A DNA stretch of 64,000 nucleotides from an uncultured Acidobacteriota bacterium (GTDB lineage: Bacteria; Acidobacteriota; Vicinamibacteria; Vicinamibacterales; JAKQTR01), in the NCBI GenBank assembly GCA_963695795.1, contig CAVOHU010000006.1, forward strand, positions 276,083 through 340,082. Reading direction: 5' to 3'. Below the pieces are notes generated by a model. That model made no database searches. It was not told where the DNA came from and was given only the letters and a program-made list of their open reading frames with translations. Numbering within the stretch: position 1 is the stretch's first letter; every line of letters begins with the position of its first letter. Below are positions 3,800-47,810 of this stretch, in pieces. The translations under genes were made by a program, and so were the position numbers.

Positions 3800-5009
3800 C
3801 TACACGGTTTCCGGACTATCGGCGTCCAGGAATGAGAGATCGGCCTCGAGCGCCCCACGCCGGCGCGTGCGGCGGGAGGTCTCGTGCAGGATCGGATAGA
3901 GCCTCTCCATCTTCCGGACGAACGTCATGATGTCGTATCGCCGGCTCGTGATCCGCGCGTTCGCCGAGAGTCTCGAGCGCTCCTCCGGCTGGCCCATGAG
4001 CGTGAGGATCTGGTCCGCGAGCGCGCGCGCATTCCGCTTGGGGACGATACGGGCGTCGCGCCCGTCGGTGAGAATGTCGAGCAAGCCGTCGGCATCGGTC
4101 GCGACGATTGCGCGCCCGGCGGCCATCGCTTCGAACGCCGTCAGCGGCGTGCCTTCCCAGAGCGAAGGAAAGACGCTCATGTCGAATCCCGACAGCAGCC
4201 GCGCCACGTCGCGCTCGAATCCCGAGAATACGAAGCGGTCGCCGAGGTTCAGGCGGCGCGCCTGTTCTTCGAGTGAGGGGCGCAGCGGCCCTTCTCCGAC
4301 GAGGAAGAACTTCGCGTCCGGTTTGGCGTCCAGGACCATCCGGGCCGCATCGACCAGGTATTCGTTGCCCTTGGAGTCGTGGAGCCGCGTGACCGTGCCA
4401 ATCGCGAACTCGCCCGGTAGCAACCCCAGTTCCCGGCGCACCGCCGCCACGTCCTCCGACGATCGCACGCCGCTGAACTCGTCGATCGGGGCGCCGAGGT
4501 AAACGAGCTTCACCCGCTCCGGTTTCACGAGCCTGGCCTTGATGACGAAGTCGACCGTGCTCTTCCCGACGGCGAGAGCGAGATCCGTGAAGGGTGCGAG
4601 CGCGCGGTCGGCGACCTTCTGGAACCACGGCGTATCGGTCAGATTCGCGTGCTCGTGCAGGATAGTGGGAAGCTTGCGGATCGCCGCGGCCGCCCGCCCG
4701 AAAGTCGTCGCTCCGTAGCCGTGCATGTGCAGGAGGTCGATCTTCTTGCGCGTCGACCACCTTAAGCAGCGCCGTCAGCGTCGACGGATCGAACTTCGAC
4801 TTGTGCAGGTAGGTGATGTCGACGCCGAACGACTCGAGCGTCTCCTCGGAGAGGTCCTTCTTGCGCAGGCTCACGAGCGACACGTTGAAGCGGGACGGGT
4901 CGAATCGCGGGATCATCCACGCGAACAGGCGCTTCACGCCGTGCATCCTCGAGCCTTCCCAGCCGAGGTGATCGCAGATCTGGAGGATGTTGAGCTTGCC
5001 GTCGGTCAT
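3800..5009 (-). pseudogene. GT4-family glycosyltransferase, frame-disrupted as sequenced (one extra base near 4748)
   Basis: The N-terminus MTDGKLNILQICDHLGWEGSRMHGVKRLF...LLKVVDA lies in the frame of ORF 3816-5777. The continuation KKIDLLHMHGYGATTFG...EGTPLTAFEAMAAGRAIVATD lies in the frame of ORF 3800-4726. The junction reads GTCGACGCG[C]AAGAAGATCGAC on the minus strand. Total length is 1210 nt, which is 3n+1. Confidence 0.75.
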
Positions 5010-5777
5010 GATGCGCCGCTTGCCGACGCGGGCGACGCCGCCCGCGTCCCGATCAGTTTTGCCGGGACCCCCGCCGCGATCGCGCAGCGCCGGCACGTCG
5101 TCCCGGACGACGGCCTGCGCACCGATGATCGCGTTGGCGCCGATCGAGACGCCGTCGAGGATCTTGGCGCCCGAGCCCATCCACACGCCCTCGCCGATGG
5201 CGACGCCTTTCGAGGATCGCTCCCCGGCGAGCACCGGCTTGGACGTATCGCTGAAGTCGTGGTCGCCGCCGACGACGTAACAATACGCCGCGAGCAGCGT
5301 GTCGGCGCCAATCGTCACGCGGCTCGCCGAGAACACCTCGCAGTTGAACCCGATGTTCGCCCGATCGGCCAGGACGATGTCGCCGTTCTTGCACGAGAGA
5401 ATCGTGTTGCGCCCCACGAAGACGCCGCTGCCGATGGTGATGCCCTCGTTCGCCTCGCCCTTCGCGTCGAGCAGGCACTGATCGTCGATGACGACGTTGT
5501 CGCCGATGCGGATCTTGGCCGGATGGCGGAGCACCACGTTCTGGCCGAACACCACGTTCCTGCCGCACGCGCCAAGAAGGCGCGGGTAGAGGGTCTTCCG
5601 GAGGACCAGCCCCAGCGCGCCTGGAACCGACTGGCTGAAGAGCGTCACCAGTTCGTGCTTGAGGAGCGCGCCAATCCCTGGCCTGCCCACCACGAGCCGC
5701 GCGTACTTCGAGAGCGCCGAGGTGCGCTGGTCGAACAGTTGCTCCTGCGCCTTCGGGATCTCCCTCGTTTCACTCAT
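5006..5777 (-). pseudogene. Left-handed beta-helix (hexapeptide repeat) acyl/acetyltransferase, frame-disrupted as sequenced (extra base near 5084)
   Basis: Hexapeptide repeats run through the ORF (IGDNVVIDD, IGSGVFVGRN, IGADTLLAA, IGEGVWMGSGA, IGANAIIGAQA). The conserved C-terminus AIAAGVPAKLIGTR lies in a different frame (ORF 5006-5311). The junction is CCGGCGCTG[C]GCGATCGCG. The corrected stop overlaps the ATG of the next GT (ATGA). Confidence 0.7.
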
Positions 5778-6800: not shown

Positions 6801-7586
6801 CGTTCCGCCACGATCGTCACCGGCGATCCGAACACGCGCAGCAGCCCGATGCTCGCGAGCGCACGTTCGACACCCTCGGTGAATCCGCGCGAGTTGACAA
6901 GCTTGTGGAACGCGATCGGCAGGACGAACTGGCGGTGCCGTCCGACGATACGAAACCCGTTGGCCTCGACTGCGGCCTGCACCTCGGCGTAGCGAAGCAC
7001 CCGGTACGACTCGACCTTCTTGCTGACGAGCCCGAGCAGGCCGCGGCCGGCTGCCTGCAGAGCGGCGGCGCTCATGGCCGCCGGGAAATCGAAGACGACG
7101 CGGCTTCGCGACACCCGGCACATCTCGGCGATGCAGCGTCTCCAGTCCGGCGTGTGCATCAGCACGCGGAGGCTGACCGAGGCGTCGAAGTGCGCATCCG
7201 GGAACCCCAGGGCGTGAGCGTCCCCGACCTCGAATTGCGCCGGAAGGCCCAAGGACTGCGCGCGCTCCCGTGCCACCCGGAGCATCTCGGACGACGCGTC
7301 GATGCCGGTCACCGAGGCGCCTTTGCTGCGCGAGCGCCAGCGCAGCGCGGCCGGTGCCCGTGCCAACGTCGAGCACCGACTGGCCCGCCAGTTCGCCGAG
7401 GAAACTGGACAGCACCTGCTCCTGCGTTTCGGCGAGCATCGCGCCGATGGCACCTCCGAACCGCGCCCGGTCGAACTGCTCCGCCATCGATCGATCGGCG
7501 TAGAGCCGATAGCTGTAGTGGTCGCGATCGATCCCGCTCTCGCGGCCGCTCCGCGGACGGCGCGATGCCGGCGCTTTGCCTTTCAC
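6785..7586 (-). pseudogene. Class I SAM-dependent methyltransferase, frame-disrupted as sequenced (extra base near 7328)
   Basis: The N-terminus DHYSYRLYADRSMAEQFDRARFGG...VLDVGTGTGRAALALA (SAM motif I) is in one frame. The continuation SKGASVTGIDASSEMLRVARERA...FDASVSLRVLMHTPDW is in the frame of ORF 6785-7453. The junction is GCGCTCGCG[C]AGCAAAGGC. The GTG start overlaps the upstream stop (GTGA). Confidence 0.7.
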
Positions 7587-27086: not shown

Positions 27087-27818
27087 CGTCCCTGCTGCCC
27101 TGCCGCGACCGGCGGAGCGGCGATCGCCGAGCGGTACCGATCGCGCAGCGGGAGCGTGGCTTCCTCGATGAGGACGAGCCTCCCGTCCCTCAGCACGGCA
27201 ACCCGATCGAAGAGCCCCTCTGCCAGATCGAGATCGTGCGTGGCCAGCAGCACCAGGCACCCGTCGTCCCTGAGCGCGCGCAGCCGAGTGACCAACGCGC
27301 GACCCGAGGCATCGTCCAGGCCCGTGAACGGCTCGTCGAGCAGGAGCAGGCGCGGCTCGTGCAGCAACGCTCGCTCGAGCGCGAGGCGCTGCCGCATGCC
27401 TCGCGAGTATCCCGACACGGGCTCGGCGCCCCGGTCGGCGAGGTTGGCCCGCGAGAGCGCCCGATCGATGCGGGCCTCCGGAGCGTCGAGCGCGTACAAC
27501 TGCGCAAAGAACGCCAGGTTCTCGCGCGCCGTCAGCTCGGGATACAGGAACAGGTCGTGCCCGAGCATTCCGATGCGGCTCCTGCAGCCGCGGCCCTGCC
27601 GTGCGGGCGTTCGACTGGCCATAAAGGATCTCGCCGGAACTCGGCGCAAGCAGCGTCGAAGCGAGGCTCAGCAGCGTGGACTTCCCCGCCCCGTTCGGGC
27701 CGAGCAAGCCCACGATTTCGCCTGCACGAACCGTGAAACTGACCCGCCACAGCGCCTTGCGCCTGCCGAAACTCCGTGAGACGTCCCGAAGCGCCAGCTC
27801 CTGGAAGTCGAGCTTCAC
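27083..27818 (-). pseudogene. ccmA: Heme exporter ATPase CcmA, frame-disrupted as sequenced (shift between about 27570 and 27620)
   Basis: Walker [12 protein letters not shown]...SSGEILYGQ lies in the frame of ORF 26403-27818. The continuation [20 protein letters not shown]...[17 protein letters not shown]...LLLLDEP (signature, Walker B) lies in the frame of ORF 27083-27649. Length is 3n+1. Confidence 0.8.
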
Positions 27819-29793: not shown

Positions 29794-31912
29794 CTCGTCT
29801 GCTCCCCGCCGGAGCTGCCGGTGACGGCCGGCTGCGCCGGACCCTCGCCTGACGCCCGGCGGTGCATCGCACTCCGGACGAGATCCGGCGAGAGCAACGC
29901 GACGCCGAGCAGCAGCACGAGCGGCGTCGCCACGGCGCCAGCCGGAATGCGCGACTGCGCGAAGGCGAAGGTCCGCTCGGGCAGCAGGCAGATCCCCGTG
30001 CCGAGCAGCAGGACGGTGAAGCCCGTCCAGATCCAGTTGACGAGCGGATTGATGACGACCTGGACGCTGATGGACTGGTCCTTGAGATCGTAGGCCGGCA
30101 TCACGAGATACAGATCCTCGGTGATGCTCCGGCGGATGGCCACCTCGGTCGTCGGCTGCTCCTCGTGCTTGCGATAGAAGTAGCGGGCCGGGTACATGGT
30201 GCCGATCGACTTGCCGTCCTCCGACACCGCGACCTGCCCGGTCACCATCTGTTTCGCGCCGTCGTCGGTCACGCGGACGCCGTCGTTCCTCACCGTGAAA
30301 TGGCGCAGCGTGGCGCTCTGCCCCTGCTTGAGCGCGAACTGCTGGTCGGCTTGGAACGCCTGCCCCGCGAACCCGAGGAACATGAGCACGATGCCCAGGT
30401 GCACGATGTAGCCGCCGTAGCGCCGCTTCTCGCGCGCCACGAGCCCGATGAGCGCCGTCACCACGTCGCTGCCGGTCGCGCCTTTCCTGACGCGGGCGCC
30501 CCGCACGAATTCCTGGAAGATGGACGTCGAGACGAAGGCGCTGAACGCGAAGCAGATGACCGGCGCGATCCGGTGCATCGCCGAGCGCGACCATGACGCC
30601 GGCGGTGAGGATGGCGACCGACACCGGCCAGGTGAACTGCTCCCGGAAATTCGCGACCGTCGACTTCTTCCAGGCCATCAGCGGCGCGACGCCCGTGAGC
30701 AGCAGGATCACGAGGCCGATCGGGACCATCCAGCGGTTGAAGAACGGCGGCCCAACCGTCAGGCGATTCCCCGTGAACGCCTCACTCAGCGTCGGGAACA
30801 TCGTGGCGAACAGCACGAAGAGCGCCGAGAAGAGGAGGATCCAGTTGTTCGCCACGAAGGCCGCCTCGCGCGAGATCCACGAGTCGAGCTCGTGGCGCGG
30901 CTTGAGGAGCGGCAGCCGGTAGATCACCCAGAAGAACCCGAAGACGAGCGAGGTCGCCATGAAGACGATGAACATCCACATGAGCGCCCGATCCTCGCCG
31001 AACGCGTGGACCGACTGCACGACGCCCGAGCGCGTCATGAACGTGCCGAAGATCGTCAGCATGAAGGTCACGATCACCAGCGTGACGTTCCACACCTTCA
31101 GCATCCCGCGGCGCTCCTGCACGATGACCGAGTGCAGGAAGGCGGACGCCGTGAACCACGGGAGCAGGCCGGCGTTCTCGACCGGGTCCCACGCCCAGTA
31201 GCCGCCCCAGCCGAGCTCCTCGTAGGCCCAGATCATGCCGAGCGTCAGGCCGAGCGTCAGGAAGAGCCAGCTCACCATCGTCCAGCGGCGGACCGCACGC
31301 AGCCAGGAATCGTCGAGGTGGCCGGTGATGAGCGCCGCCATGCCGAACGCGAACGGGATCGTCATCCCCACGAATCCGGTATAGAGCGAGCGGCGGGTGC
31401 ACCACCATGTACACGTTCTGGAGGAGCGGATTGAGGCCCTGGCCGTCGGAGGGCGACTGGGTGAGAAAGACGTCGAAGGGGTTCTTGTGCACGATCATCA
31501 CGAACAGGAAGAACATCTCGACGCCGGCGATGGTCGCCACGACGTAGGGAATCAGTTCGCGGTGGCGGTCGCGGTTGACCCAGATGGCCGTCGTTCCGAA
31601 GGCGGCGAGCAGCGTCACCCAGAACATGATCGAGCCGTCCAGGCCGCCCCAGTACGACGTGATCTTGTAGAAGAGCGGCTGCACCGCGTCCGAGTAGTGC
31701 TGCACGTACTTGACCGAGTAGTCGTTGGTCACGAAGGCGTGCACGAGAATTGCCGAGGCGAGCCCCATGAGCGCGGTCAGCAGGTAGAACGAGCCGACGC
31801 CGCTTTCGATGAGCCGGCGCGAGCCGCGGCGGGCGCCGGCCACCGACGCGGCCATCGCGTACGCACACACCACGAACGCGGAAGCCAGCACAAACGTGCC
31901 GATGGTTGCCAT
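29790..31912 (-). pseudogene. ccmF: Cytochrome c heme lyase/heme handling protein CcmF, frame-disrupted as sequenced (extra bases near 31387 and 30579)
   Basis: Three collinear pieces sit in three frames. Piece 1: MATIGTFVLASAF...LLQNVYMVVHPPL. Piece 2: LYTGFVGMTIPFAFGMAAL...GWGGYWAWDPVENAGLLPW (WWD motif)...LTAGVMVALG. Piece 3: MHRIAPVICFAFSAF...VINPLVNWIWTG. The junctions are CCGCCGCTC[G]CTCTATACC and CTCGGC[G]ATGCAC. Length is 3n+2. Confidence 0.85.
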
Positions 31913-33097: not shown

Positions 33098-33943
33098 ATG
33101 GACGTTCAGGGTGTCCGCTCGATCGTTCAGAAACACAGCGGGCAACGGGGAGCCATGATTTCCATCCTGGAGGACGTGCAAGAGCAGTGTGGCTATCTGC
33201 CCGCTGACGCCCTCGAAGCAGTCGCCGACGCGACGGGACGTTCGCTGGTCGATGTCTACGGGATCGCGACGTTCTACCGCGCGTTCAGCCTGAAGCCCCG
33301 CGGCAAACACGTCTGCACGGTCTGCCTTGGAACCGCCTGCCACGTGCGAGGAGCCCCGGCCGTCGCTGACCAGTTCGAGAATCGGCTCGAGGTGGCGCGC
33401 GGGGAGACGACACCCGACGGGGAGTTCACGCTCGAAACGGTCAACTGCCTCGGCGCCTGCGCCCTCGGTCCAATCGTCGTCGTCGACGGGCATTACTTCT
33501 CGAACGTCTCGACGGGACGCGTAAAGGACATCCTGCAGCAAGCCGAGGCCGGCCTGGACCGGGAGCAGGAGGGTGCCGAGCACGCATTTCCGCTCAGTGT
33601 CAGGTGTCCCCGGTGCAACCACAGCCTGATGGATGCCGAGCATCCCATCGAGGGCTACGCCTCGATCGCGTTCCTGATGTCATCAGGCGGCGAGCAGGGC
33701 TGGCTACGTCTCTCAGCCCTGTACGGGACGCGTGCCTTCGAGACGGAACACGAAATGGCGGCGGGAAGCGTGGCGCGCCTGTTCTGTCCGCACTGCGTCG
33801 GCGAACTCGGGGGCAGCACCGTGTGCCTGGAATGCGACGCGCCCCGGGTGCCGCTCATCGTGGAGGGCGGCGCCATCCTGCAGGTGTGTTCGCGCTTGGG
33901 CTGCAAGGGCCACATGCTCGACCTGAGCGGCGTCAACTGCTGA
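33098..33943 (+). CDS. NuoE/HoxE/HydC-like [2Fe-2S] thioredoxin-fold subunit with C-terminal Cys-rich extension
   Basis: NuoE motifs: ILEDVQEQCGYLP, CTVCLGTACHVRG and VNCLGACALGP. There is an extra ~115 aa with CPRC...CPHC...CLEC...CSRLGCKGH. Confidence 0.85.
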   Translation: MDVQGVRSIVQKHSGQRGAMISILEDVQEQCGYLPADALEAVADATGRSLVDVYGIATFYRAFSLKPRGKHVCTVCLGTACHVRGAPAVADQFENRLEVARGETTPDGEFTLETVNCLGACALGPIVVVDGHYFSNVSTGRVKDILQQAEAGLDREQEGAEHAFPLSVRCPRCNHSLMDAEHPIEGYASIAFLMSSGGEQGWLRLSALYGTRAFETEHEMAAGSVARLFCPHCVGELGGSTVCLECDAPRVPLIVEGGAILQVCSRLGCKGHMLDLSGVNC

Positions 33944-34044
33944 CCGGTACTGAGCCCTGTGGGCCGGGGCGCTCCTCGATCGAGGTCCGGAACAGGGCGT
34001 TTGGACCTCAGGGCTCGAGAGCTCACGGATGAAGGGACACTGGT

Positions 34045-37000
34045 ATGGAACCACTCGAATCCATTAACGAGTTTGCCGCCTTGCGGGCGCGTCTCGCAGC
34101 AGCCCGAGACCCGGTTCGACCGGTCGTCGTCATTTCGGCCGGCACGTGCGGGCAGGCCAGCGGAGCAAACGACCTCATTCGTTCGGCCAAGAGTGAGTTG
34201 CTCGCCGCCGGCCTGACCAGCGCCATCGGGTTGCGCGTAACCGGGTGTCACGGCTACTGCCAGATGGAGCCTTCCGTGCTTGTCGAGCCGCGCGGAACGT
34301 TCTACCCCAAGGTCACCCCGCGCGACATGGCCCGGATCATCGGGGCCGTTCGGCAGGGAGGGGTCGTCGACGACCTCCTCTATCAGGATCTCCTCACGGG
34401 CCGGCCGATCGAAAAGCAGCACGACCTGCCCTTCTATGCGAGCCAGGTGCGGACCATCCTCAGCTTCAACGAGAAGGTCGATCCAACTCGCGTGTTCACC
34501 TACATCGAGCACGGCGGATACACCGCCCTGCAAGCGGCGTTGGCCAGGGGCGACCCGGCGTGGGTCCTCGCAGAGGTCAAGGCATCACGCCTGCGCGGGC
34601 GCGGCGGCGCGGGATTCCCCACCGGCGTGAAATGGGAGGCGTTGGCGTCGCAGCGGAACGGACACGGCAAGATCCTCGTGTGCAACGCCGATGAAGGCGA
34701 CCCTGGGGCCTACATGGACCGCAGTGTGCTCGAGGGCAACCCCCACAGCATCCTCGAAGGCATGATCATCGGCGCGTATGCGACGGGGGCGACCGAAGGC
34801 GTGATCTACGTGCGGAGCGAATACCCGCTGGCGGTCAAGCACCTCAAGGTCGCGCTCCGGCAAGCTCGAGAGCTCGGGCTCCTCGGCAAGAACATTCTGG
34901 GCTCGGGGCTCTCGTTCGACATCTCGATCGTCAAGGGCGCCGGGGCGTTCGTCTGCGGCGAGGAGACGGCGCTCATGCGCTCGGTCGAGGGCAAGATGGG
35001 CGAACCGCGGCAGCGGCCGCCGTACCCGGTTCAGCGGGGCATCGACGGGAAGCCGACCGCGATCAACAACGTCGAGACGTGGGCCAACGTGCCGGCCATC
35101 CTCCGGCAGGGGGCCGCGACCTACGCCGCGATCGGCACCGCGAGCAACACGGGCACGAAGATCTTCAGCCTGGTCGGCAAGACGAAGAACACCGGACTGG
35201 TTGAAGTGCCGATGGGCATGACCATCGAGGACATCGTCACCCGCATCGGCGGCGGACCTTCGGGGAACGCGCGGATCAAGGCGGTGCAGACCGGCGGTCC
35301 CTCAGGCGGGTGCATCCCGTCGCAGATGTTCGACCTGCCCATCGACTTCGAGAGCCTCGCGCAAGCGGGGTCGATCATGGGGTCGGGCGGCATGATCGTC
35401 ATGGACGAGAACACCTGCATGGTGGATGTCGCGAAGTACTTCATGCACTTCCTCAAGGACGAGTCCTGCGGGAAGTGTTTCACGTGCCGCAAGGGAACCC
35501 AGCGGATGTACGAGATCCTGGAGGACATCTCCACCGGCAAGGGCACCCTCGACGGATTGGCGCTGCTCGAGGAGCTGGCGGTCGTCGTGAAGGACACGAC
35601 GATGTGCGGACTCGGACAGACCGCGGCGAATCCCGTATTGAGCACGCTTCGGTATTTCAGGCGCGAGTACGAGCGCCATATTCTGGACCTGAAGTGCGAC
35701 GCCTTCGTCTGCAAGGACCTGGTCGGCGCGCCCTGCCAGGCCGCCTGCCCGATTGGCACCGAAGCCTGGCGGTACGTGGCGCATCTGGCCCGAGGTGAGT
35801 ACGAAGAGGCGTACCGCGTGATCCGGGAAGCGAATCCGTTCCCGTCCGTCTGCGCGCGGGTCTGCGACCACCCGTGCGAAGAGCGATGCCGGCTTGGCAC
35901 GACCGGAGGCCGGCCCATTGCCATCCGCGCGTTGAAGCGGTTCATCACGGACCATGTCGATCCGTCGGTGTACCGGCCCGTGCGGCGGGCGGGAACGGCC
36001 ATGGCCATGCCGCCCATCGCGATCGTCGGTTCGGGACCCGCCGGGCTGACGGCCGCGCACTATCTGTCGCTCGACGGATACGCGGTCACGGTGTTCGAGG
36101 CCGACGATCGGCCCGGCGGCATGCTGGTCAGCGGGATTCCAGCCTATCGCTTACGGCGCGATACCCTGCGCAGGGAGATCGACGCGCTGCTCGACGGGCA
36201 CATCGATCTTCGGTGCGACACGGCGCTCGGCCGCGACCTCACGATCGACAGCCTGTTCGCGGACGGGTTCAAGGCGGTGTTCGTTGCCTTGGGCGCCCAC
36301 CGGAGCCGGCGGCTCAATATCGACGGCGAGCATATCGACGGCGTCATCCCGGCGATCCAGTTCCTGAAGGCCTTCAACCTCCGGGGCGAGACGCTCGCCC
36401 GGGGCCACGTCGGCATCATCGGCGGCGGCAACTCCGCGGTCGACGCGGCCCGGGTCGCCTTGCGCCAGGAGGACGTCGAGAGCGTCACGATCTTCTACCG
36501 GCGCACGCGGCAGGACATGCCGGCGCTGAAGGAAGAGATCGCGGCCGCGCTCGCGGAAGGCATCACGCTCAGGTGCCTCGTGGCGCCGTCCAGGATTCTC
36601 TCTCAGGACGGCCACCTGACCGGGCTCGAGTGCGTCCGCACGACGCTCGGGCGCATGGACGCCAGCGGGCGGAGGCATCCGACCACCGTTCCAGCCAGCG
36701 AGTTCACCACCTCGCTCGACTACCTGATCGTCACGATCGGCGACGAACCCGACATCGACTACATCTCGTCGATGGGCCTCACGGTCACCGACCGTGGCAC
36801 GCTCGCGGTCGACCCCGAGACGCTCGCGACCAACCGCGCCGGCGTGTTCGCGGGCGGCGATGTGGTCACCGGCCCGAACACGGTGGTGGAGGCGATTGCG
36901 GCCGGCAAGAAAGCGGCGGTCGTGATTGATCGGTACCTGAGAGGAGAAGAACTGCGGAAACCGGCGACGCCGAATCTTCCCAAGGTGTACGTGGAGCCGG

Positions 37001-37173
37001 TGCCCGTCACCGACGCGGAGAGCGCAAAGAATGTTCGCGTTGTGCCACCCACGCTGCCGCCCGAGGTGCGCAAACGGAGTTTCGCAGAGGTCGAGTTCTC
37101 GCTGCTGGCCGAGGAAGCCACCAGCGAGGCCCGTCGCTGTATGCGATGCGATCTGGAGTTCACTCGGGTGTAG
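34045..37173 (+). CDS. Fusion flavoprotein: HydB/NuoF-like NADH-FMN-FeS module fused to GltD-like FAD/NAD(P)H oxidoreductase
   Basis: 1042-aa intact ORF. It has an N-terminal thioredoxin-like 2Fe-2S domain and the NuoF motifs GRGGAGFPTGVKW and ESCGKCFTCRKG. The GltD-type Fe-S region is CQAACPIG...CARVCDHPCEERC. Dinucleotide folds: IVGSGPAGLTAAHYL and IIGGGNSAVDAAR. Confidence 0.85.
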   Translation: MEPLESINEFAALRARLAAARDPVRPVVVISAGTCGQASGANDLIRSAKSELLAAGLTSAIGLRVTGCHGYCQMEPSVLVEPRGTFYPKVTPRDMARIIGAVRQGGVVDDLLYQDLLTGRPIEKQHDLPFYASQVRTILSFNEKVDPTRVFTYIEHGGYTALQAALARGDPAWVLAEVKASRLRGRGGAGFPTGVKWEALASQRNGHGKILVCNADEGDPGAYMDRSVLEGNPHSILEGMIIGAYATGATEGVIYVRSEYPLAVKHLKVALRQARELGLLGKNILGSGLSFDISIVKGAGAFVCGEETALMRSVEGKMGEPRQRPPYPVQRGIDGKPTAINNVETWANVPAILRQGAATYAAIGTASNTGTKIFSLVGKTKNTGLVEVPMGMTIEDIVTRIGGGPSGNARIKAVQTGGPSGGCIPSQMFDLPIDFESLAQAGSIMGSGGMIVMDENTCMVDVAKYFMHFLKDESCGKCFTCRKGTQRMYEILEDISTGKGTLDGLALLEELAVVVKDTTMCGLGQTAANPVLSTLRYFRREYERHILDLKCDAFVCKDLVGAPCQAACPIGTEAWRYVAHLARGEYEEAYRVIREANPFPSVCARVCDHPCEERCRLGTTGGRPIAIRALKRFITDHVDPSVYRPVRRAGTAMAMPPIAIVGSGPAGLTAAHYLSLDGYAVTVFEADDRPGGMLVSGIPAYRLRRDTLRREIDALLDGHIDLRCDTALGRDLTIDSLFADGFKAVFVALGAHRSRRLNIDGEHIDGVIPAIQFLKAFNLRGETLARGHVGIIGGGNSAVDAARVALRQEDVESVTIFYRRTRQDMPALKEEIAAALAEGITLRCLVAPSRILSQDGHLTGLECVRTTLGRMDASGRRHPTTVPASEFTTSLDYLIVTIGDEPDIDYISSMGLTVTDRGTLAVDPETLATNRAGVFAGGDVVTGPNTVVEAIAAGKKAAVVIDRYLRGEELRKPATPNLPKVYVEPVPVTDAESAKNVRVVPPTLPPEVRKRSFAEVEFSLLAEEATSEARRCMRCDLEFTRV

Positions 37174-37196
37174 CGGCCGGAGGGAGGGATCGCCAC

Positions 37197-37878
37197 ATGA
37201 TTTCGTTGAAACTCAACGGGTTGCCGGTGTCGGTCGAGAAAGGCACCACGCTGCTCGAGGCGGCACGGTTCCTCGGTTTTCCGATCCCGACGTTGTGCCA
37301 CATGGAGGGACTCTCGCCCTACGGGGCGTGCCGCCTGTGCGTCGTGGAGATCGGCGAGGGGCCCAAGGCGCGGCTGGTGTCCTCGTGCACCTACCCGGCC
37401 GAAGAAGGGCTCATCGTGCGCACCGCCTCGGCCCGGGTCGTGCGCGCGCGGAAGATGATCGATCGAGCTCCTGCTCGCGTCGTGCCCGCAGTCCAAGGTG
37501 ATCCAGGACCTCGCCTCTGCCCACGGCGTGCGGCAGCAGCGATTCCGGCAGGAACACGAGGACTGCATCCTCTGCGGCCTGTGCGTGCGGATGTGCAAGG
37601 AGCAGATGATGGCCGGCGCGATCGGCTTCCGCGGACGCGGCGAGACCGGCGCATCTGGGCACGCCCTTCGACAAGACACTCGGAGGTGTGCCGCCTGTGC
37701 GGCGGCTGCATGTACGTCTGCCCGGCCTGCCAGCTGCGCTGCACGTTCACCGAACCCGACAAGGCGATCTGCGGCGGGTGCGCCAACCTGAGCCCGCCGT
37801 GCCTCGAGAAGGCAGACGTTCGACGACATGATGTGCTACATGACCCCCTGCGTCGCCTGCGAGATCCGCAAGGAATGA
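37197..37878 (+). pseudogene. 2Fe-2S / 4Fe-4S ferredoxin-like subunit (NuoG N-terminal-like), heavily frame-disrupted as sequenced (at least 4 indels)
   Basis: ATG 37197 follows GGAGGGAGGG. MISLKLNGLPVSVEKGTTLLEAARFLGFPIPTLCHMEGLSPYGACRLCVVEI is a 2Fe-2S Fer2_4-type motif. The collinear pieces are ELLLASCPQSKVIQDLASAHGV...CILCGLCVRMC, GTPFDKT, SEVCRLCGGCMYVCPAC and QTFDDMMCYMTPCVACEIRKE*. They sit in successive frames, with shifts near 37464, ~37650, ~37680 and 37812. Confidence 0.65.
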
Positions 37879-37899
37879 CCGGAGAAGGAGGAGACTCAA

Positions 37900-39511
37900 A
37901 TGTCACTGTCCATCGTCAATGCCTCGGCGGCGACCCTGACCAAGAACCGGACCGAGGATTCCGTCGTCCCGACCTCCGGCATGTGCGTGACCTGCGTGGA
38001 CGGCTGCATCGGCATGTGCGAGATCGGCAAGTCCGCCTACCGCGGCCACGAGGTGATCTACCCGCAGCCGTTCGGCGTGATCACCACCGCCGGCCGAGAA
38101 GCACTACCCGGTCGACTACTCGCACTTCAACATCATGGGCACCGCCGTCGGCGCCCACGGCATCGAGGCCGACAGCGACAAGGCGATCTTCCCGGCGGTG
38201 AACCTCGAAGTGTCGATCGGCCACGACAAGGGGATCAAGTTCCGCTATCCGTGGATCATCCCCGGCATCGGCTCGACCAACATCGCCAAGAACAACTGGG
38301 AAGGCCTGGCCATCGGCTCGGCCCTGGCCGGCACCGGGCTGACCATCGGCGAGAACGTCGTCGGCATGGACCCGGAGGCGGTGCTTCAGAACGGCCGCGT
38401 CGTCGACACGGCGGACCTGAAGCGCCGCGTGAAGCTCTACAAGGACCATCAGCGCGACGGCTACGGCGCCATCATCGTCCAGGCCAACGTCGAGGACACG
38501 CGGCTCGGCGTCCAGGAGTACGCCATCGAGAAGCTCGGGCGTCGCAGTGCGTCGAGCTGAAGTGGGGCCAGGGCGCCAAGGACATCGGCGGCGAGGTGAA
38601 GATCCGCGACCTCACGAAGGCGCAGATGCTCTACGAGCGCGGCTACATCGTGCTGCCCGAACCCGACGGACCCGCACGTGATCAAGGCCTTCGAGCGGGG
38701 CGCCTTCAAGGAGTTCGAGCGCCACTCCCGCGTCGGCATGGTGTACCGAGGAGGGCTTCGCCCAGCGCGTCGAGGAGCTGCGCAAGGCCGGCGCCAAGTA
38801 CGTCTTCCTGAAGACCGGCGCCTACCGGCCGGCCGACCTGGCCCGCGCCGTCGCGTTTTCCTCGAAGTACAAGCATCGACCTGCTCACCGTCGACGGCGC
38901 GGGCGGCGGCACGGGCATGAGCCCCTGGCGCATGATGAACGAGTGGGGCGTTCCGCCCGTCGAGCTGCATTCGCTGCTGTATCAGTACGCCAAGCGCTCG
39001 CGGACGAGGGAGGCCACCTGCCGGCGCTCGCGGTCGCGGGCGGCTTCACCTTCGAGGATGCAGATCTTCAAGGGGCTGGCGCTGGGCGCCCCATTCGTGA
39101 AGATGGTCGGCATGGCTCGGGCGCCGATCGCCGCCGCGATGGTCGGCAAGACCATCGGCCGGGCGATCGAGGAGGGGCAGCTTCCGGTCTACGTGGAGCG
39201 GTTCGGCAACACGCAAGGACGAGATCTTCGTGACCGCCGCGCAACTCCGGCACGAGCTCGGCGACGACGCCTTCGAGAAGCTCCCGACCGGCGCCATCGG
39301 GCTCTACACCTACTACGAGCGCCTCGCCCAGGGACTGCGCCAGCTCATGGCCGGCAGCCGCAAGTTCGCGACCGAGCACATCTCGCGGGACGACATTGCC
39401 GCGCTCACGCCGGAGGCGAGCCGGATCAGCGGCATCTCGTACGTGATGGACGTCGATCAATACGAGTCGGAGCGCATTCTCGCGGGTGCCTGCGCGCCGG
39501 TTCACGCCTGA
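37900..39511 (+). pseudogene. Glutamate synthase-related FMN protein (GltB FMN-domain family, no amidotransferase domain), heavily frame-disrupted as sequenced (9 indels)
   Basis: ATG 37900 follows GGAGAAGGAGGAG. Collinear homologous pieces change frame near 38092, 38540, 38550, 38662, 38747, 38874, 38997 (a 1-nt deletion), 39060 and 39214. The reconstructed 534-aa protein has no internal stop. It carries CVTCVDGCIGMCEIG, VELKWGQGAKDIGGEVK, LTVDGAGGGTGMSP and GGFTFEDQIFKGLALGA. Confidence 0.75.
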
Positions 39512-39542
39512 GGGCAGCCCGGTCACGCGGCGCGCCGCTCCG

Positions 39543-42431
39543 CTAGGGTGTGGCCAGGAAGCCGAGGGCTTCGTCCTTCTCGCCGTCCATGACGACGTGA
39601 AGCTCGTGGCCGTCGGCGACCTGGGCCACGTCAATCACTCTCACCGCCTCGGCGAGGTATGCGTACTCGGGCAGCATCGCGCTCAACTGGTTCGGAGACT
39701 GCAGGAAGAACGGCTCGTTGAACACGATGCCGTCCTCGTCCGGGTAGAGCGCCAGGTAGCGAATCCGGGATTCGACCAGGTCCTGGAAGAAGTGCGTCCC
39801 GAACGACAGGTCCGGCACGTAGCTGCCGGTCTTCCTCGCGATCTCGACCAGCATGGCCGCATTGCAGATGCCGGCGTAGGTCACCCGCACGCCGAGCGTG
39901 ATATCGCCCCGGCTCCCCCATCGCCCCGGCCCGACCAGGATGAACGCCCGCCGCGGCAGCAGCCCGTTCAGGCGGCTGACCAGGTCGCCGACGGCGTGCA
40001 TCTCGCTCATCGATCCGAGGCGACCGTACGCGATCGGATCGACATACACCACGTAACGGACACCCTTGATCTGGGCGCTGGTGACGTGCCGATTGGCCGA
40101 GAAGATCTGGTGCGCGGCGGGCACGTGCGCGGGGACGGGTTCCCTCCGCTCGTCCCCCGATCCGCTCTGCGGCCGGTACTGGAGCAGGTACAGGTCCCTC
40201 CCGTCGTGCGCGAACTCGACATCGACGGGTCCGCCCAGGACGCGCGACAGGATTCCCAGGATCTCCTGCATCTGCCGGACGAATTCCGTGGTCTCGACAA
40301 GCCCCGCGAAGGTGATCACCGTGTCGTCGCTGCCCGGCCTGAGGAGCAGCTTCGAGGGGCGGCGAAGCATGTCATCGGCATGAACGGAGACGATCTTGTC
40401 GAGGTGCGGGAACTGCGCACCAACCTCGAGGAGCAACGACCTGAAACTCCTCGACTCGAACTGGCCGGTCATCAGGTTGAGCACGTCGAGGTATCGCTGG
40501 GAGTAGTGAAGCGTCTCCTCGAGTGTGGCGTTGACGCGGAGGCCCGGTTGTCCGGGACATAGTAGGGCCGGATAGTCCTCGCCGACGCGATCCACCGCCC
40601 TGGTTCCAAGCCCGGCCACCAGGCGGATGATGCCATCGCCCCGCTTGATCCGTGGCGACCAGCGGAACTCGTTGTTGCTGAGGGCGACGCCGGCGAACAC
40701 CGGGAAGAAGTAGCGGCCGACCCGCGTGCCGACGACACGCTGGATGAGCACCGCCATCTGCTCGTTGAAATCGAGCAGTCCCCGTTCCTTGCGGTACTGG
40801 ATCGGATCGGGCCCGAACAGCGAGGCGTAGACCTCGGCGATGGCATCGGTCAGCGCCGCGAGCCGTTCGTCCTTGGTTCCCGTATTCGGCAGGAAGAGGC
40901 TGCGATACTTGCCGGAGAATGACGCGCCCTCGTTGTCCTCGAGGAGGCTCGACGAGCGCACGATGAGCGGCCAGTCGCCCAGATCGTCGAGCGCCAGCTT
41001 CAGCCCGTTGGTCAGCTCGGGCGGAAAGAAGGAGTGCTTGAAGGTCTGTTCCAGATACGCATGGCCCTGCTGGATTTCCTCGATCGGTGCGTACTTGATG
41101 CTCTGGATGTCCTCCAGGCTGTTGTACCGGATGAAATCGAGAACGCCATCCGACAACACGTACCAAGTATGAGGGACGCGAATCGACTCGATGAGCGGGT
41201 TGCCGCGGCCTTCCCGCCGCAGCACGTGCTGGGCCAGGAACAGCCCGGCGGCCTTTCCGCCAATCTTTCCGGTGCCGTGCGGGCGCCCGACGACGTGGTT
41301 GAGCAGCCGGCCAAAATCGTGGATGGTCAGATAGCGCTTCGCCGTCCCGACAAACGGCAGGCGCTCGGTCATGAACCGCTGGGTGAGGGCGGCCCGGACG
41401 TTGAGATCATCCGACGGCGAGAGCGCCGCCTCCCCCTCTCGCGCCGAGCGACAGAATCGGTCGACGATCTCTGTCAGCTCAGCGAGCGCCAGATCCCTCT
41501 GCTCGGTCGCCAGGGCGAGGAACCCGAGCTTGTCCTGCCGAATCCACTGCTTCAGCTGAACCGTCATGTCCTCGGCCGAATCGACGAGAGACGCGATTCG
41601 GATGATCTCGTCGAAGAGCCGGTTGACCGTCTCGAGGTCCTGCTTCGGCAGCGGCTGATTCCCGGCTGACTCGCGGCCGCGCGCCAGATACGTGGCGGGA
41701 TCGATCCGCTGAATGAGCTTCTGGACGCCGGGGACACCGAGCTTCGACAGGTGGTTCATGAGCCGCCGAAGCATGCGCCGCCACAGCATCGCGTCGGTGT
41801 CCTTCAGCAGGTCGAGGATGACCTCCCATTCGGGCTTTCGCGGGTACTGCTGCTGAACCGGCGCGAGACCGGCCCGGCCGCCGGTCTGGCTGATCTGCCG
41901 GCCATGGATGTAGCGGCCGACCCACGCGGCAATCGTGGTGATGAGCTTCTGCTCTTCGAGAAGAAACGGCTCCGAGAAGGTCGCCGGGCCTTCGATGTAT
42001 GCGACCTCGATCGCACCGCGCACCCGGCCGTCGACCATGATGGTTGCGCGCTGGACCCACGGTGTGGGCCGAAAGCCCGCTGCCTCGTAGATGTTGTCAT
42101 CGAATGAAAGCCGCGCCCGGCATCGCTCCGGGTACTGCCAGCCGTCAGGTATGAGCTTGACAATCTCGCGGAACACCTCGGCGGGCGGCAGGTGCGGATT
42201 CTCCAGCACGTCGGAGATCGCGTAGAGGCACCGCAGTTCTTTGGCGACCTCCTCGAGCCCGACGGCGTGTGACGGCGTCGCGCCGGTCGAGTCGGGGGGA
42301 GGGGCATCCCCACCGCGCTCCCACCGGGCGGGTATCTCGTGGTCGTCCTGGCGAGACGCCACGCGAGTCTGGCGATCCGATTCCTCGCCGCTTGATAGGG
42401 CCATGGCGCTGCAGCAGGCACATTCTCGCAC
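39543..42431 (-). CDS. PEP/pyruvate-binding (PPDK_N ATP-grasp) domain protein with N-terminal GAF-like domain
   Basis: Up to 962 aa. Has GKIGGKAAGLFLAQHVL and IVRSSSLLEDNEGASFSGKYRSLFL (PpsA/PPDK N-terminal nucleotide-binding motifs). I could not find a phosphohistidine swivel motif (TSHAA-like). An alternative start, MALSSGEE, lies at 42404. Confidence 0.7.
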   Translation of the reverse strand: MRECACCSAMALSSGEESDRQTRVASRQDDHEIPARWERGGDAPPPDSTGATPSHAVGLEEVAKELRCLYAISDVLENPHLPPAEVFREIVKLIPDGWQYPERCRARLSFDDNIYEAAGFRPTPWVQRATIMVDGRVRGAIEVAYIEGPATFSEPFLLEEQKLITTIAAWVGRYIHGRQISQTGGRAGLAPVQQQYPRKPEWEVILDLLKDTDAMLWRRMLRRLMNHLSKLGVPGVQKLIQRIDPATYLARGRESAGNQPLPKQDLETVNRLFDEIIRIASLVDSAEDMTVQLKQWIRQDKLGFLALATEQRDLALAELTEIVDRFCRSAREGEAALSPSDDLNVRAALTQRFMTERLPFVGTAKRYLTIHDFGRLLNHVVGRPHGTGKIGGKAAGLFLAQHVLRREGRGNPLIESIRVPHTWYVLSDGVLDFIRYNSLEDIQSIKYAPIEEIQQGHAYLEQTFKHSFFPPELTNGLKLALDDLGDWPLIVRSSSLLEDNEGASFSGKYRSLFLPNTGTKDERLAALTDAIAEVYASLFGPDPIQYRKERGLLDFNEQMAVLIQRVVGTRVGRYFFPVFAGVALSNNEFRWSPRIKRGDGIIRLVAGLGTRAVDRVGEDYPALLCPGQPGLRVNATLEETLHYSQRYLDVLNLMTGQFESRSFRSLLLEVGAQFPHLDKIVSVHADDMLRRPSKLLLRPGSDDTVITFAGLVETTEFVRQMQEILGILSRVLGGPVDVEFAHDGRDLYLLQYRPQSGSGDERREPVPAHVPAAHQIFSANRHVTSAQIKGVRYVVYVDPIAYGRLGSMSEMHAVGDLVSRLNGLLPRRAFILVGPGRWGSRGDITLGVRVTYAGICNAAMLVEIARKTGSYVPDLSFGTHFFQDLVESRIRYLALYPDEDGIVFNEPFFLQSPNQLSAMLPEYAYLAEAVRVIDVAQVADGHELHVVMDGEKDEALGFLATP

Positions 42432-46378: not shown

Positions 46379-46855
46379 CTAATCCAGCAAGCGATCCACC
46401 GACGCCCGAATCGTCAGCCAGCGCAATTGGTCCGCCGGCACGGGGACCTGCACCTTCACCTTGATCCGAGCGCCCGGAAGCAGGCGCTCGGGCAGGCTGA
46501 CGACGACCGCGTCCTCCCTCGACTCGCCGTACCAGACCTGCAGCGCTGCGTTCCCGTAGCCGACGCCGAACGGGTTGCCGACCGTCAGCGTGACCCGGCA
46601 TCCTTCGGCGTTCTCTTCGATCTTCCCGGCAGTTACCGTGAGCGGAAACCCGTACGGCGTTTGGACGAGCAGGTCGGCGGGCGCCGACAGGTCGAGCCGC
46701 GCCTCACGGCGAGCCGCTCCGGCCGCCTGCTCGCTGGATACGGCGGACTCGACAGCGGCCACTCGCGTGCTGAGTTCGATGAGCTTCCAGCCTTCGACGG
46801 CGCACAAGGCGACGAGCAGCAGACCGGCCAGGATGATTCCAGCCCGAGCACTCAT
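46379..46855 (-). CDS. Hypothetical membrane-anchored protein
   Basis: 158 aa from ATG 46855, with an N-terminal TM (IILAGLLLVALCAVEGW) followed by a beta-rich soluble domain. I recognise no motif. Confidence 0.45.
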   Translation of the reverse strand: MSARAGIILAGLLLVALCAVEGWKLIELSTRVAAVESAVSSEQAAGAARREARLDLSAPADLLVQTPYGFPLTVTAGKIEENAEGCRVTLTVGNPFGVGYGNAALQVWYGESREDAVVVSLPERLLPGARIKVKVQVPVPADQLRWLTIRASVDRLLD

Positions 46856-46954
46856 GACGGCCCCCTCTTGCCGGCGCGTTGCCGAGCACACGCCCGGTTT
46901 CGAACCGCGCACAGGATTGCGAGGGTCGACAGGCAGCGGTCTCCAGGCCGGGAC

Positions 46955-47530
46955 CTATTCGTGTTCCTTCTCGGTCTCGTCGCCCGGGGCCGAAGTCGCG
47001 ACGTCGTCGAACTCGACGCTCGCCTCGGCTTCAGGCTCGGCACCAACGTCGGCTCCAGGCTCGTCGCCGACGTCGAACACGCGCCCGCCGCCGCGCACCC
47101 GAATCGGCCCCTTGGGGCCGGCGTCGCCTCGCGGCCGCGAGGTGGTCCGGCGCCCTTTCGGCGGCGCAGGCGGCCCGAAGTTCCGTTCGCGACGCCCGCC
47201 GGGCTCACCGCCGGCCATGGGCGGCCCGCCGGCGAATGCCGCGGGCGGCGGGCCCGCCGGACGGAATCCGGGCCCCCGCTCCTCTCGCGGGCGAGCTTCG
47301 CTCACCGACAGGGGCCGCCCCTGGAACGGCTGCCCGTTGAGCTGCCGAATGACCTCGGCCGCGACCGAGAGCTCGGCGTATTCGACGAAGGCGAAGCCGC
47401 GCGGACGGCCCGTTTCGCGGTCCACGGGCAGAGCGACAGAGAGCGGTGGTGCGACCGTCGCGACGTAGGCCCGCAGATCCGCTTCGGTGGCGCTGTATGG
47501 GAGGTTCCCGACGAACAGGCGGACAGCCAC
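46955..47530 (-). CDS. RRM-type RNA-binding protein with long Gly/Pro/Arg-rich and acidic C-terminal tail
   Basis: RNP-2 LFVGNL and RNP-1 RGFAFVEY motifs lie in the first ~85 aa. About 100 aa of low-complexity tail follow. The start is GTG 47530, preceded by AGAGGTGA. Confidence 0.8.
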   Translation of the reverse strand: MAVRLFVGNLPYSATEADLRAYVATVAPPLSVALPVDRETGRPRGFAFVEYAELSVAAEVIRQLNGQPFQGRPLSVSEARPREERGPGFRPAGPPPAAFAGGPPMAGGEPGGRRERNFGPPAPPKGRRTTSRPRGDAGPKGPIRVRGGGRVFDVGDEPGADVGAEPEAEASVEFDDVATSAPGDETEKEHE

Positions 47531-47810
47531 GCTACTATTTCACCTCTTTGAAAACAGGTTTCGGCACAGGGATGGGGAGATGGTGGATCGTTGTGGAAGG
47601 AGGACTCTCTGGCTCACGCGGACTCAACAGCGATAGAATGTAGCAGACACACGAGTCAAATGACAACCGGAGCTTTTCGGCGGCCGATCCCGAGCCCGGA
47701 ATCCGCCTTCCGCCGGATTGCCGCCAAAGTGGTCCGCCGGTGACCGGAGCGACTTGCGGCAGGCAGGTCTCTCTGGTACTGTTGCACCTTTCCCAACAAC
47801 CGAGCCAATC

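Follow-up and report, generated by a model that had tools for sequence, protein, structure and literature searches.

A dense patch of single-base frame shifts in two operon genes of an uncultured Acidobacteriota bacterium is very probably an artefact of the assembled consensus

Has an uncultured Acidobacteriota bacterium lost the last two genes of one of its operons, or does only its assembled sequence make them look broken? The question is raised by a stretch of 64,000 nucleotides (contig CAVOHU010000006.1 of GenBank assembly GCA_963695795.1, positions 276,083 to 340,082; hereafter the window), in which at least 13 single-base insertions or deletions (indels) disrupt the reading frames of an iron-sulfur (Fe-S) protein gene and of a GltB-like gene for a flavin mononucleotide (FMN)-binding protein of the glutamate synthase family. 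Our analysis indicates that these 13 frame shifts are very probably errors of the assembled consensus, namely leftover stochastic insertion noise in a poorly covered or unpolished patch. Judged from the repaired reading frames, the organism most likely carries two intact and functional genes here, encoding an Fe-S protein of 225 amino acids and a GltB-like, FMN-binding protein of 534 amino acids. The hot spot sits inside a four-gene operon (NuoE-like, NuoF-GltD, Fe-S, GltB-like), which we compared with the nearest relatives found, among them L083, a Joint Genome Institute (JGI) metagenome contig whose NuoF-GltD protein is 88% identical, and L084, an Acidobacteria metagenome-assembled genome (GCA_040752275.1) whose NuoF-GltD protein is 83% identical. 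The operon and the convergent gene behind it are arranged as follows.

33098..33943, plus strand: NuoE-like thioredoxin-type [2Fe-2S] gene, the first of the operon, intact (PF01257, E=7e-49; single-frame tblastn match to the L084 orthologue)
34045..37173, plus strand: NuoF-GltD fusion gene, 1042 amino acids, intact and clean, directly upstream of the hot spot (Pfam Complex1_51K, NADH_4Fe-4S, Fer4_20, Pyr_redox_2)
37197..37878, plus strand: Fer2_4 and Fer4_7 iron-sulfur protein gene with four single-base insertions; 225 amino acids after repair
37900..39511, plus strand: FMN-binding glutamate-synthase-family (PF01645, GltB-like) gene with eight insertions and one deletion; 534 amino acids after repair
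39543..42431, minus strand: PPDK_N-domain gene, 962 amino acids, intact, convergent and clean, directly downstream of the hot spot (PF01326; single-frame tblastn match to the L084 orthologue, residues 33-954)

Three-frame translation of the two affected genes shows conserved peptide segments that jump from frame to frame. A frameshift-aware protein-to-DNA alignment against five intact homologues assigned four +1 events to the Fe-S gene and eight +1 events and a single -1 event to the GltB-like gene. The events were placed a second time in a MAFFT DNA alignment with L083, L084 and L002 (83-85% nucleotide identity), where, relative to all three, the window shows 12 isolated extra bases and lacks one isolated base at 38998. 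The individual events are listed here.

37458..37461, plus strand: event 1, +1; ATCG stands opposite one codon (ACG, ACA or ACC) in the three nearest relatives
37645..37654, plus strand: event 2, +1; ten bases against three codons, in a variable stretch that leaves the exact position ambiguous
37676..37679, plus strand: event 3, +1; ACAC for one Thr codon
37811..37818, plus strand: event 4, +1; GCAGACG (37812-37818) against two codons, the extra base possibly being the preceding G at 37811
38092..38095, plus strand: event 5, +1; GGCC for one Gly codon
38537..38540 and 38541..38544, plus strand: events 6 and 7, +1 each; GGGC and then GTCG for Gly-Val, 4-5 nt apart
38656..38659, plus strand: event 8, +1; CCCG for one Pro codon, or GAAC for Asn/Asp
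38744..38747, plus strand: event 9, +1; TACC, where homologues have TCC (Ser) or ACC (Thr)
38871..38874, plus strand: event 10, +1; AAGC for one codon, Gly or Lys in homologues
38998..38999, plus strand: event 11, -1, the sole deletion; TC remains of a Leu/Ile codon that is ATC in the relatives
39060..39063, plus strand: event 12, +1; GCAG for one codon, Ala or Gln in homologues
39211..39214, plus strand: event 13, +1; ACGC for one Thr codon

Removal of events 6 and 7 yields LGVQCVELKW, the same sequence as in the homologue P0002. The pair near 38540 can alternatively be read as one deletion plus an extra codon, with a net gain of 2 nt in either case; only the reading with two insertions keeps the length of the orthologues. 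The outermost events lie at about 37459 and 39214, so that all 13 fall within about 1.8 kb. The upstream 1042-amino-acid gene and the downstream 962-amino-acid gene contain no frame shift at all and run in a single frame against their orthologues in tblastn comparisons. These results bear out the earlier note on this DNA, which had counted at least 13 single-base shifts, four in the Fe-S gene and nine in the GltB-like gene, directly after a 3.1-kb gene without any: both alignments agree with it, the positions differ by no more than a few bases, and the preceding gene matches its L084 orthologue in one frame.

How exceptional is this density? A census of the remaining 61.7 kb, based on Pfam domains split between adjacent frames, found at least six further shifts, all of them +1 and in unrelated genes; the count is a lower bound that refers to open reading frames (ORFs) with Pfam matches. 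Split-Pfam evidence replaced composition-based tracing of the frame (base-composition and codon Viterbi paths), which proved unreliable here.

27560-27623 (approximately), minus strand: CcmA, +1; ABC_tran profile positions 3-51 in one frame and 55-136 in the next
31378-31396 (approximately), minus strand: CcmF, first break, +1; Cytochrom_C_asm profile positions 1-80, then 79-206
30555-30585 (approximately), minus strand: CcmF, second break, +1; CcmF_C profile positions 18-127, then 133-320
7316-7331 (approximately), minus strand: S-adenosylmethionine (SAM) methyltransferase, +1; motif I (VLDVGTGTG) in one frame, the remaining domain in the next
4736-4754 (approximately), minus strand: GT4 glycosyltransferase, +1; the N-terminal ~60 residues in another frame
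5075-5093 (approximately), minus strand: hexapeptide acetyltransferase, +1; the C-terminus (AIAAGVPAKLIGTR) shifted

The background therefore amounts to about one event per 10 kb, against 5.6 events per kb in the hot spot, which is about 58-fold above the rest of the window and agrees with the roughly 50-fold excess over one event per 10 kb that had been estimated from the letters. At the window-wide rate, at least 13 events in 2315 bp have a Poisson probability of 8e-14. Conversely, at the rate of the hot spot the absence of any event has a probability of 9e-11 for the 3129-bp upstream gene and of 5e-10 for the 2889-bp downstream gene. The patch is real and sharply bounded. Among the 19 events of the whole window there are 18 insertions and one deletion (sign test, P = 5e-4), and the six events outside the hot spot form two clumps of three, each spanning less than 4 kb (P about 1e-3).

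What state are the two genes in once these events are undone? Taking out 12 bases and putting one in yields two ORFs, of 225 and 534 codons, that contain no internal stop. Their lengths are exactly those of the orthologues, which are uninterrupted in L083, L084 and L002. At columns at least 98% conserved, the repaired proteins do not deviate once (0/81 for the Fe-S protein, with 78 homologues, and 0/235 for the GltB-like protein, with 184 homologues; 0/316 together), and the intact NuoF-GltD protein, subjected to the same test, deviates at one of 267. Three deviations were found at columns at least 90% conserved; two of them fall on event codons, where the choice of the base to be removed was arbitrary. 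Relative to L083, the ratio of non-synonymous to synonymous substitution rates (dN/dS; Nei-Gojobori) comes to 0.060 in the Fe-S gene, 0.077 in the GltB-like gene and 0.113 in the intact NuoF-GltD gene. Beyond the indels there is no decay, and purifying selection on the broken genes is untouched; this rules out a pseudogenisation that is old or even moderately recent. In the mutation spectra of bacteria, base substitutions outnumber indels roughly tenfold. Some 100 substitutions would consequently be expected alongside thirteen neutral indels, several dozen of them at invariant residues, where none is seen. The earlier description of the corrected genes as clean, free of internal stops and unlike old pseudogenes is thereby confirmed.

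Nor do the sites of the events share a sequence context. The events spare all 14 homopolymer runs of at least four bases in the interval, the shortest distance between such a run and an event being 9 nt; the longest A or T run is a TTTT that lies away from the events. A reading as the extension of a run is impossible for about half of the inserted bases, as random insertion into a sequence of 67% guanine plus cytosine (GC) would give. No 3-mer, 4-mer or 5-mer is common to the sites beyond chance, the best P value being 4e-3 among 107 five-mers, which is not significant after correction. Past each site the pre-event frame stays open for 19-740 nt, and no stop codon or pause codon marks the sites. 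The window, to which this check was confined, contains no repeat, and there is no GC anomaly, as the patch has 61-71% GC per 200 bp, like its surroundings. Three candidate causes were accordingly rejected: a repeat or paralogue that made polishing fail (the window holds no repeat), a GC extreme that weakened the patch (its GC content matches the surroundings), and methylation or a slippery motif at the sites (they have no k-mer in common).

A profile that consists of indels only, is dominated by insertions, is blind to context and is patchy points to stochastic read noise that survived under thin consensus support. We therefore propose that a stretch of about 1.8-2.3 kb was assembled from too few or too noisy reads, and that random single-base insertions outlived consensus calling in it. 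Its support may have been weak through a dip in coverage, a patch missed by polishing, or a gap bridged by few long reads. Among the options listed in the earlier note, a locally low-quality consensus caused by a drop in coverage, joined here by an unpolished patch, is the one that fits best. Errors of this kind should be patchy and should not respect functional units, and this is what the window displays, with its six +1 events in unrelated genes and in two clumps; patchy read support would produce such clumping.

Published error profiles help to narrow down the likely source. In PacBio RS reads, indel errors outnumber substitution errors about 15-fold; the errors show no bias with respect to homopolymers and GC content, look genuinely random, and can be corrected only when coverage is sufficient (PMC4719071). 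Insertion errors are overrepresented in PacBio subreads, and indels break reading frames (PMC6487183). More generally, residual long-read errors lead to frame shifts and persist where short-read alignment is unreliable, notably in repeats (PMC8812927). Nanopore errors, by contrast, are biased toward deletions and elevated in homopolymer runs, and 454 errors concern homopolymer length (PMC4719071); neither profile fits the events described here. The noise resembles that of PacBio continuous long reads (CLR) most closely: as in that profile (PMC4719071, PMC6487183), indels far outnumber substitutions, none of which is detectable at conserved sites, insertions are enriched, and the events are random with regard to homopolymers, GC content and motifs. 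Artefactual pseudogenes from long-read assemblies (PMC8812927, PMC6487183, PMC12007338) likewise show conserved genes split into collinear fragments by single-base indels, no elevation of substitutions, and errors that linger where support or polishing failed. They differ from the present case in that the events here do not concern homopolymer length, are almost all insertions and number 13 in about 1.8 kb.

Several points weigh against a consensus artefact or against its assignment to a technology. We infer the artefact from the assembled sequence and did not observe it in reads, and that sequence itself, lacking a repeat, a GC extreme or a motif, offers no cause for weak support. The local indel rate of about 0.6-0.7% lies far below raw long-read error, in particular that of raw PacBio CLR reads, and means that the patch must be a weak consensus, whether drawn from a few reads or left incompletely polished, and cannot be one raw read; the match to this platform is one of profile only. 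Residual errors of modern long-read assemblies usually concern homopolymer length and are, for Nanopore, mostly deletions (PMC8812927, PMC4719071); as the events here are unlike these, the technology is uncertain. Lastly, the collections that we searched held no sequence of the same species for a direct comparison: the exact products NuoF-GltD, 3-hydroxyacyl-CoA dehydrogenase and RecA had no match, the genome scan reached at most 72% identity, and a wobble-degenerate DNA pattern of the gene's C-terminus was without a match in metagenome contigs.

Which other explanations deserve consideration? The most serious one is itself an artefact, although we hold it to be rather unlikely: reads of two strains or alleles may have been collapsed, with a consensus that kept both alleles (an insertion) or neither (the single deletion). 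Nearly every insertion can indeed be read as a codon with a second base beside the wobble position, or lies at a residue that varies among homologues, and many four-base "codons" resemble paired alleles, for example (ACA/ACC, GTC/GTG, GGG/GGC, ACG/ACC, TCC/ACC for Ser/Thr, AAC/GAC for Asn/Asp); the sole deletion falls on a first codon position that varies between Leu and Ile. When random insertions into the repaired genes were simulated and scored by the same rule, two acceptable parses one nucleotide apart occurred in 58.5% of them, against 11 of the 12 observed insertions (P = 0.015). This enrichment is weak, however, and the wobble-specific version of the test falls short (9/12 against 51.5% simulated, P = 0.09). 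For event 1 the best explanation is a base that entered between the first and second positions of the codon, the second allele is nowhere visible, and the consensus caller would have had to keep both branches, contrary to the normal behaviour of graph-based callers. The strain mixture raised in the earlier note thus retains a weak hint in its favour, which its wobble-specific form does not share. Systematic base-calling errors of a platform sensitive to homopolymers or methylation (Nanopore, 454, Ion Torrent, HiFi), left unpolished, are highly improbable, even though frame shifts in bacterial genomes assembled from long reads arise most often from such miscalls (PMC8812927). The events avoid homopolymer runs, about half of them extend no run, and no k-mer unites them; their ratio of 18 insertions to one deletion runs opposite to that of Nanopore data, in which deletions were reported to be about twice as frequent as insertions (PMC4719071). 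Basecalling errors related to methylation, another option of the note, and those related to homopolymers hence find no support. With strain mixture and all other variants of an artefact included, it is close to certain that assembly quality is at fault.

Explanations that take the indels as genuine fare worse still. A real and very recent inactivation, in which 13 true indels destroyed the last two genes of the operon, agrees with the presence of the indels in the deposited sequence and with the location of both genes in one operon, and genuine pseudogenes can accumulate several frame shifts in one gene. Pseudogenes of reductive evolution, such as those of Mycobacterium leprae and of recent symbionts, also contain substitutions, stops and larger deletions, and their dN/dS drifts toward 1. 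The two genes studied here differ from them in the absence of stops and of changed invariant residues and in a dN/dS of 0.06-0.08, so that a burst of insertions without substitutions would be needed. Moreover, the six further +1 events strike unrelated genes, among them ccmA, ccmF and cell-envelope genes; the rate of the window, extrapolated to a genome of a few Mb, would correspond to about 1000 frame shifts (an arithmetic estimate); and all four operon genes are intact in the nearest relatives. We consider inactivation, which the earlier note had left open, very unlikely, and a little less credible than systematic miscalls. Recoding, in which ribosomes would bypass genuine extra bases through programmed +1 frameshifting, or deletional editing would cut them out of the messenger RNA, could account for a broken genomic frame with a full-length product, for the fact that nearly all events are +1, and for the perfection of the repaired product. 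Programmed +1 frameshifting of the prfB type is tied to a defined site that bears a specific motif, and insertional or deletional RNA editing is known only from certain organelles (Physarum mitochondria, kinetoplastids); we know of no report of deletional RNA editing in bacteria. Here, by contrast, 13 sites without a motif lie in a bacterial operon: no slippery or stimulatory motif is common to them, no stop codon stands at the shifts, the old frame remains open past each event, one event has the opposite sign (-1), and the orthologues of the closest relatives need no recoding. Transcriptional slippage would moreover call for long A or T runs, and there are none. Recoding can, in our judgement, practically be neglected. 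Taken as a class, a localized mutational process that yields only +1 insertions without substitutions within about 2 kb, or an operon in a bacterium that mends its message through the deletion of nucleotides or through +1 frameshifting repeated at sites without a motif, merits scarcely any credence.

The surroundings of the hot spot are those of an ordinary chromosome with a GC content of about 67%, on which recA, der, priA and the genes for tRNA-Phe and tRNA-Pro are found. The gene order of the operon is kept, with every gene intact, in the nearest relatives found (L083, L084, L001 and L002). A comparison with the orthologous locus in close relatives had been recommended at the outset, and the locus proved intact and syntenic in L083, L084 and L002. 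Together with the convergent PPDK_N gene, the operon (33098-42431) is syntenic with positions 9091-18380 of L084, and synteny stops on both sides of this block, which makes L084 of no use for checking the rest of the window. NuoF-GltD runs in one collinear frame against its L084 orthologue and is 88% identical to P0121, which also has 1042 amino acids; the best protein matches reach 88% for NuoF-GltD and 89% for the GltB-like protein. The GltB-like protein (37900-39511) is unusually conserved, with 83-91% identity to homologues annotated as Planctomycetota, Acidobacteriota, KSB1, Zixibacteria and Ignavibacteria (loci L001-L084), and its partner NuoF-GltD is only about 60-77% identical beyond the two nearest relatives. 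To judge from these identities, the conservation of the GltB-like protein suggests very strong constraint, or else lateral spread.

Some further observations concern the rest of the window. With its frames joined, CcmF is a clean protein of about 700 amino acids, and the shifts in the GT4 glycosyltransferase, the hexapeptide acetyltransferase and the SAM methyltransferase all lie within a cell-envelope gene cluster. Two minus-strand ORFs, 46382-46954 and 46958-47539, share the same frame and are parted by a single stop codon (46955-46957); the upstream ORF of this pair has an N-terminal RRM_1 domain, and the downstream one is without a Pfam match. Codon positions give only a weak GC signal, with a value of about 0.74 for GC1 as well as for GC3, and long antisense shadow ORFs are common in the window. 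Owing to these two properties, the prediction of frame and strand from composition alone is unreliable in this genome.

What, then, does the hot spot mean for this bacterium? It is almost certainly a matter of data quality and not of biology. Automatic annotation would call two pseudogenes or about ten gene fragments at the hot spot, and it would also report ccmA, ccmF and cell-envelope genes as broken elsewhere in the window; such false pseudogene calls would make pathway and completeness calls for the genome wrong. The signature described here, patchy, independent of homopolymers and made up of insertions, is a useful flag for read-level polishing of the whole assembly, and the true proteins can be recovered at this locus by homology-guided repair. 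If all 13 indels were genuine after all, the locus would show something unknown; unless reads contradict the interpretation as a consensus artefact, it holds no new biology.

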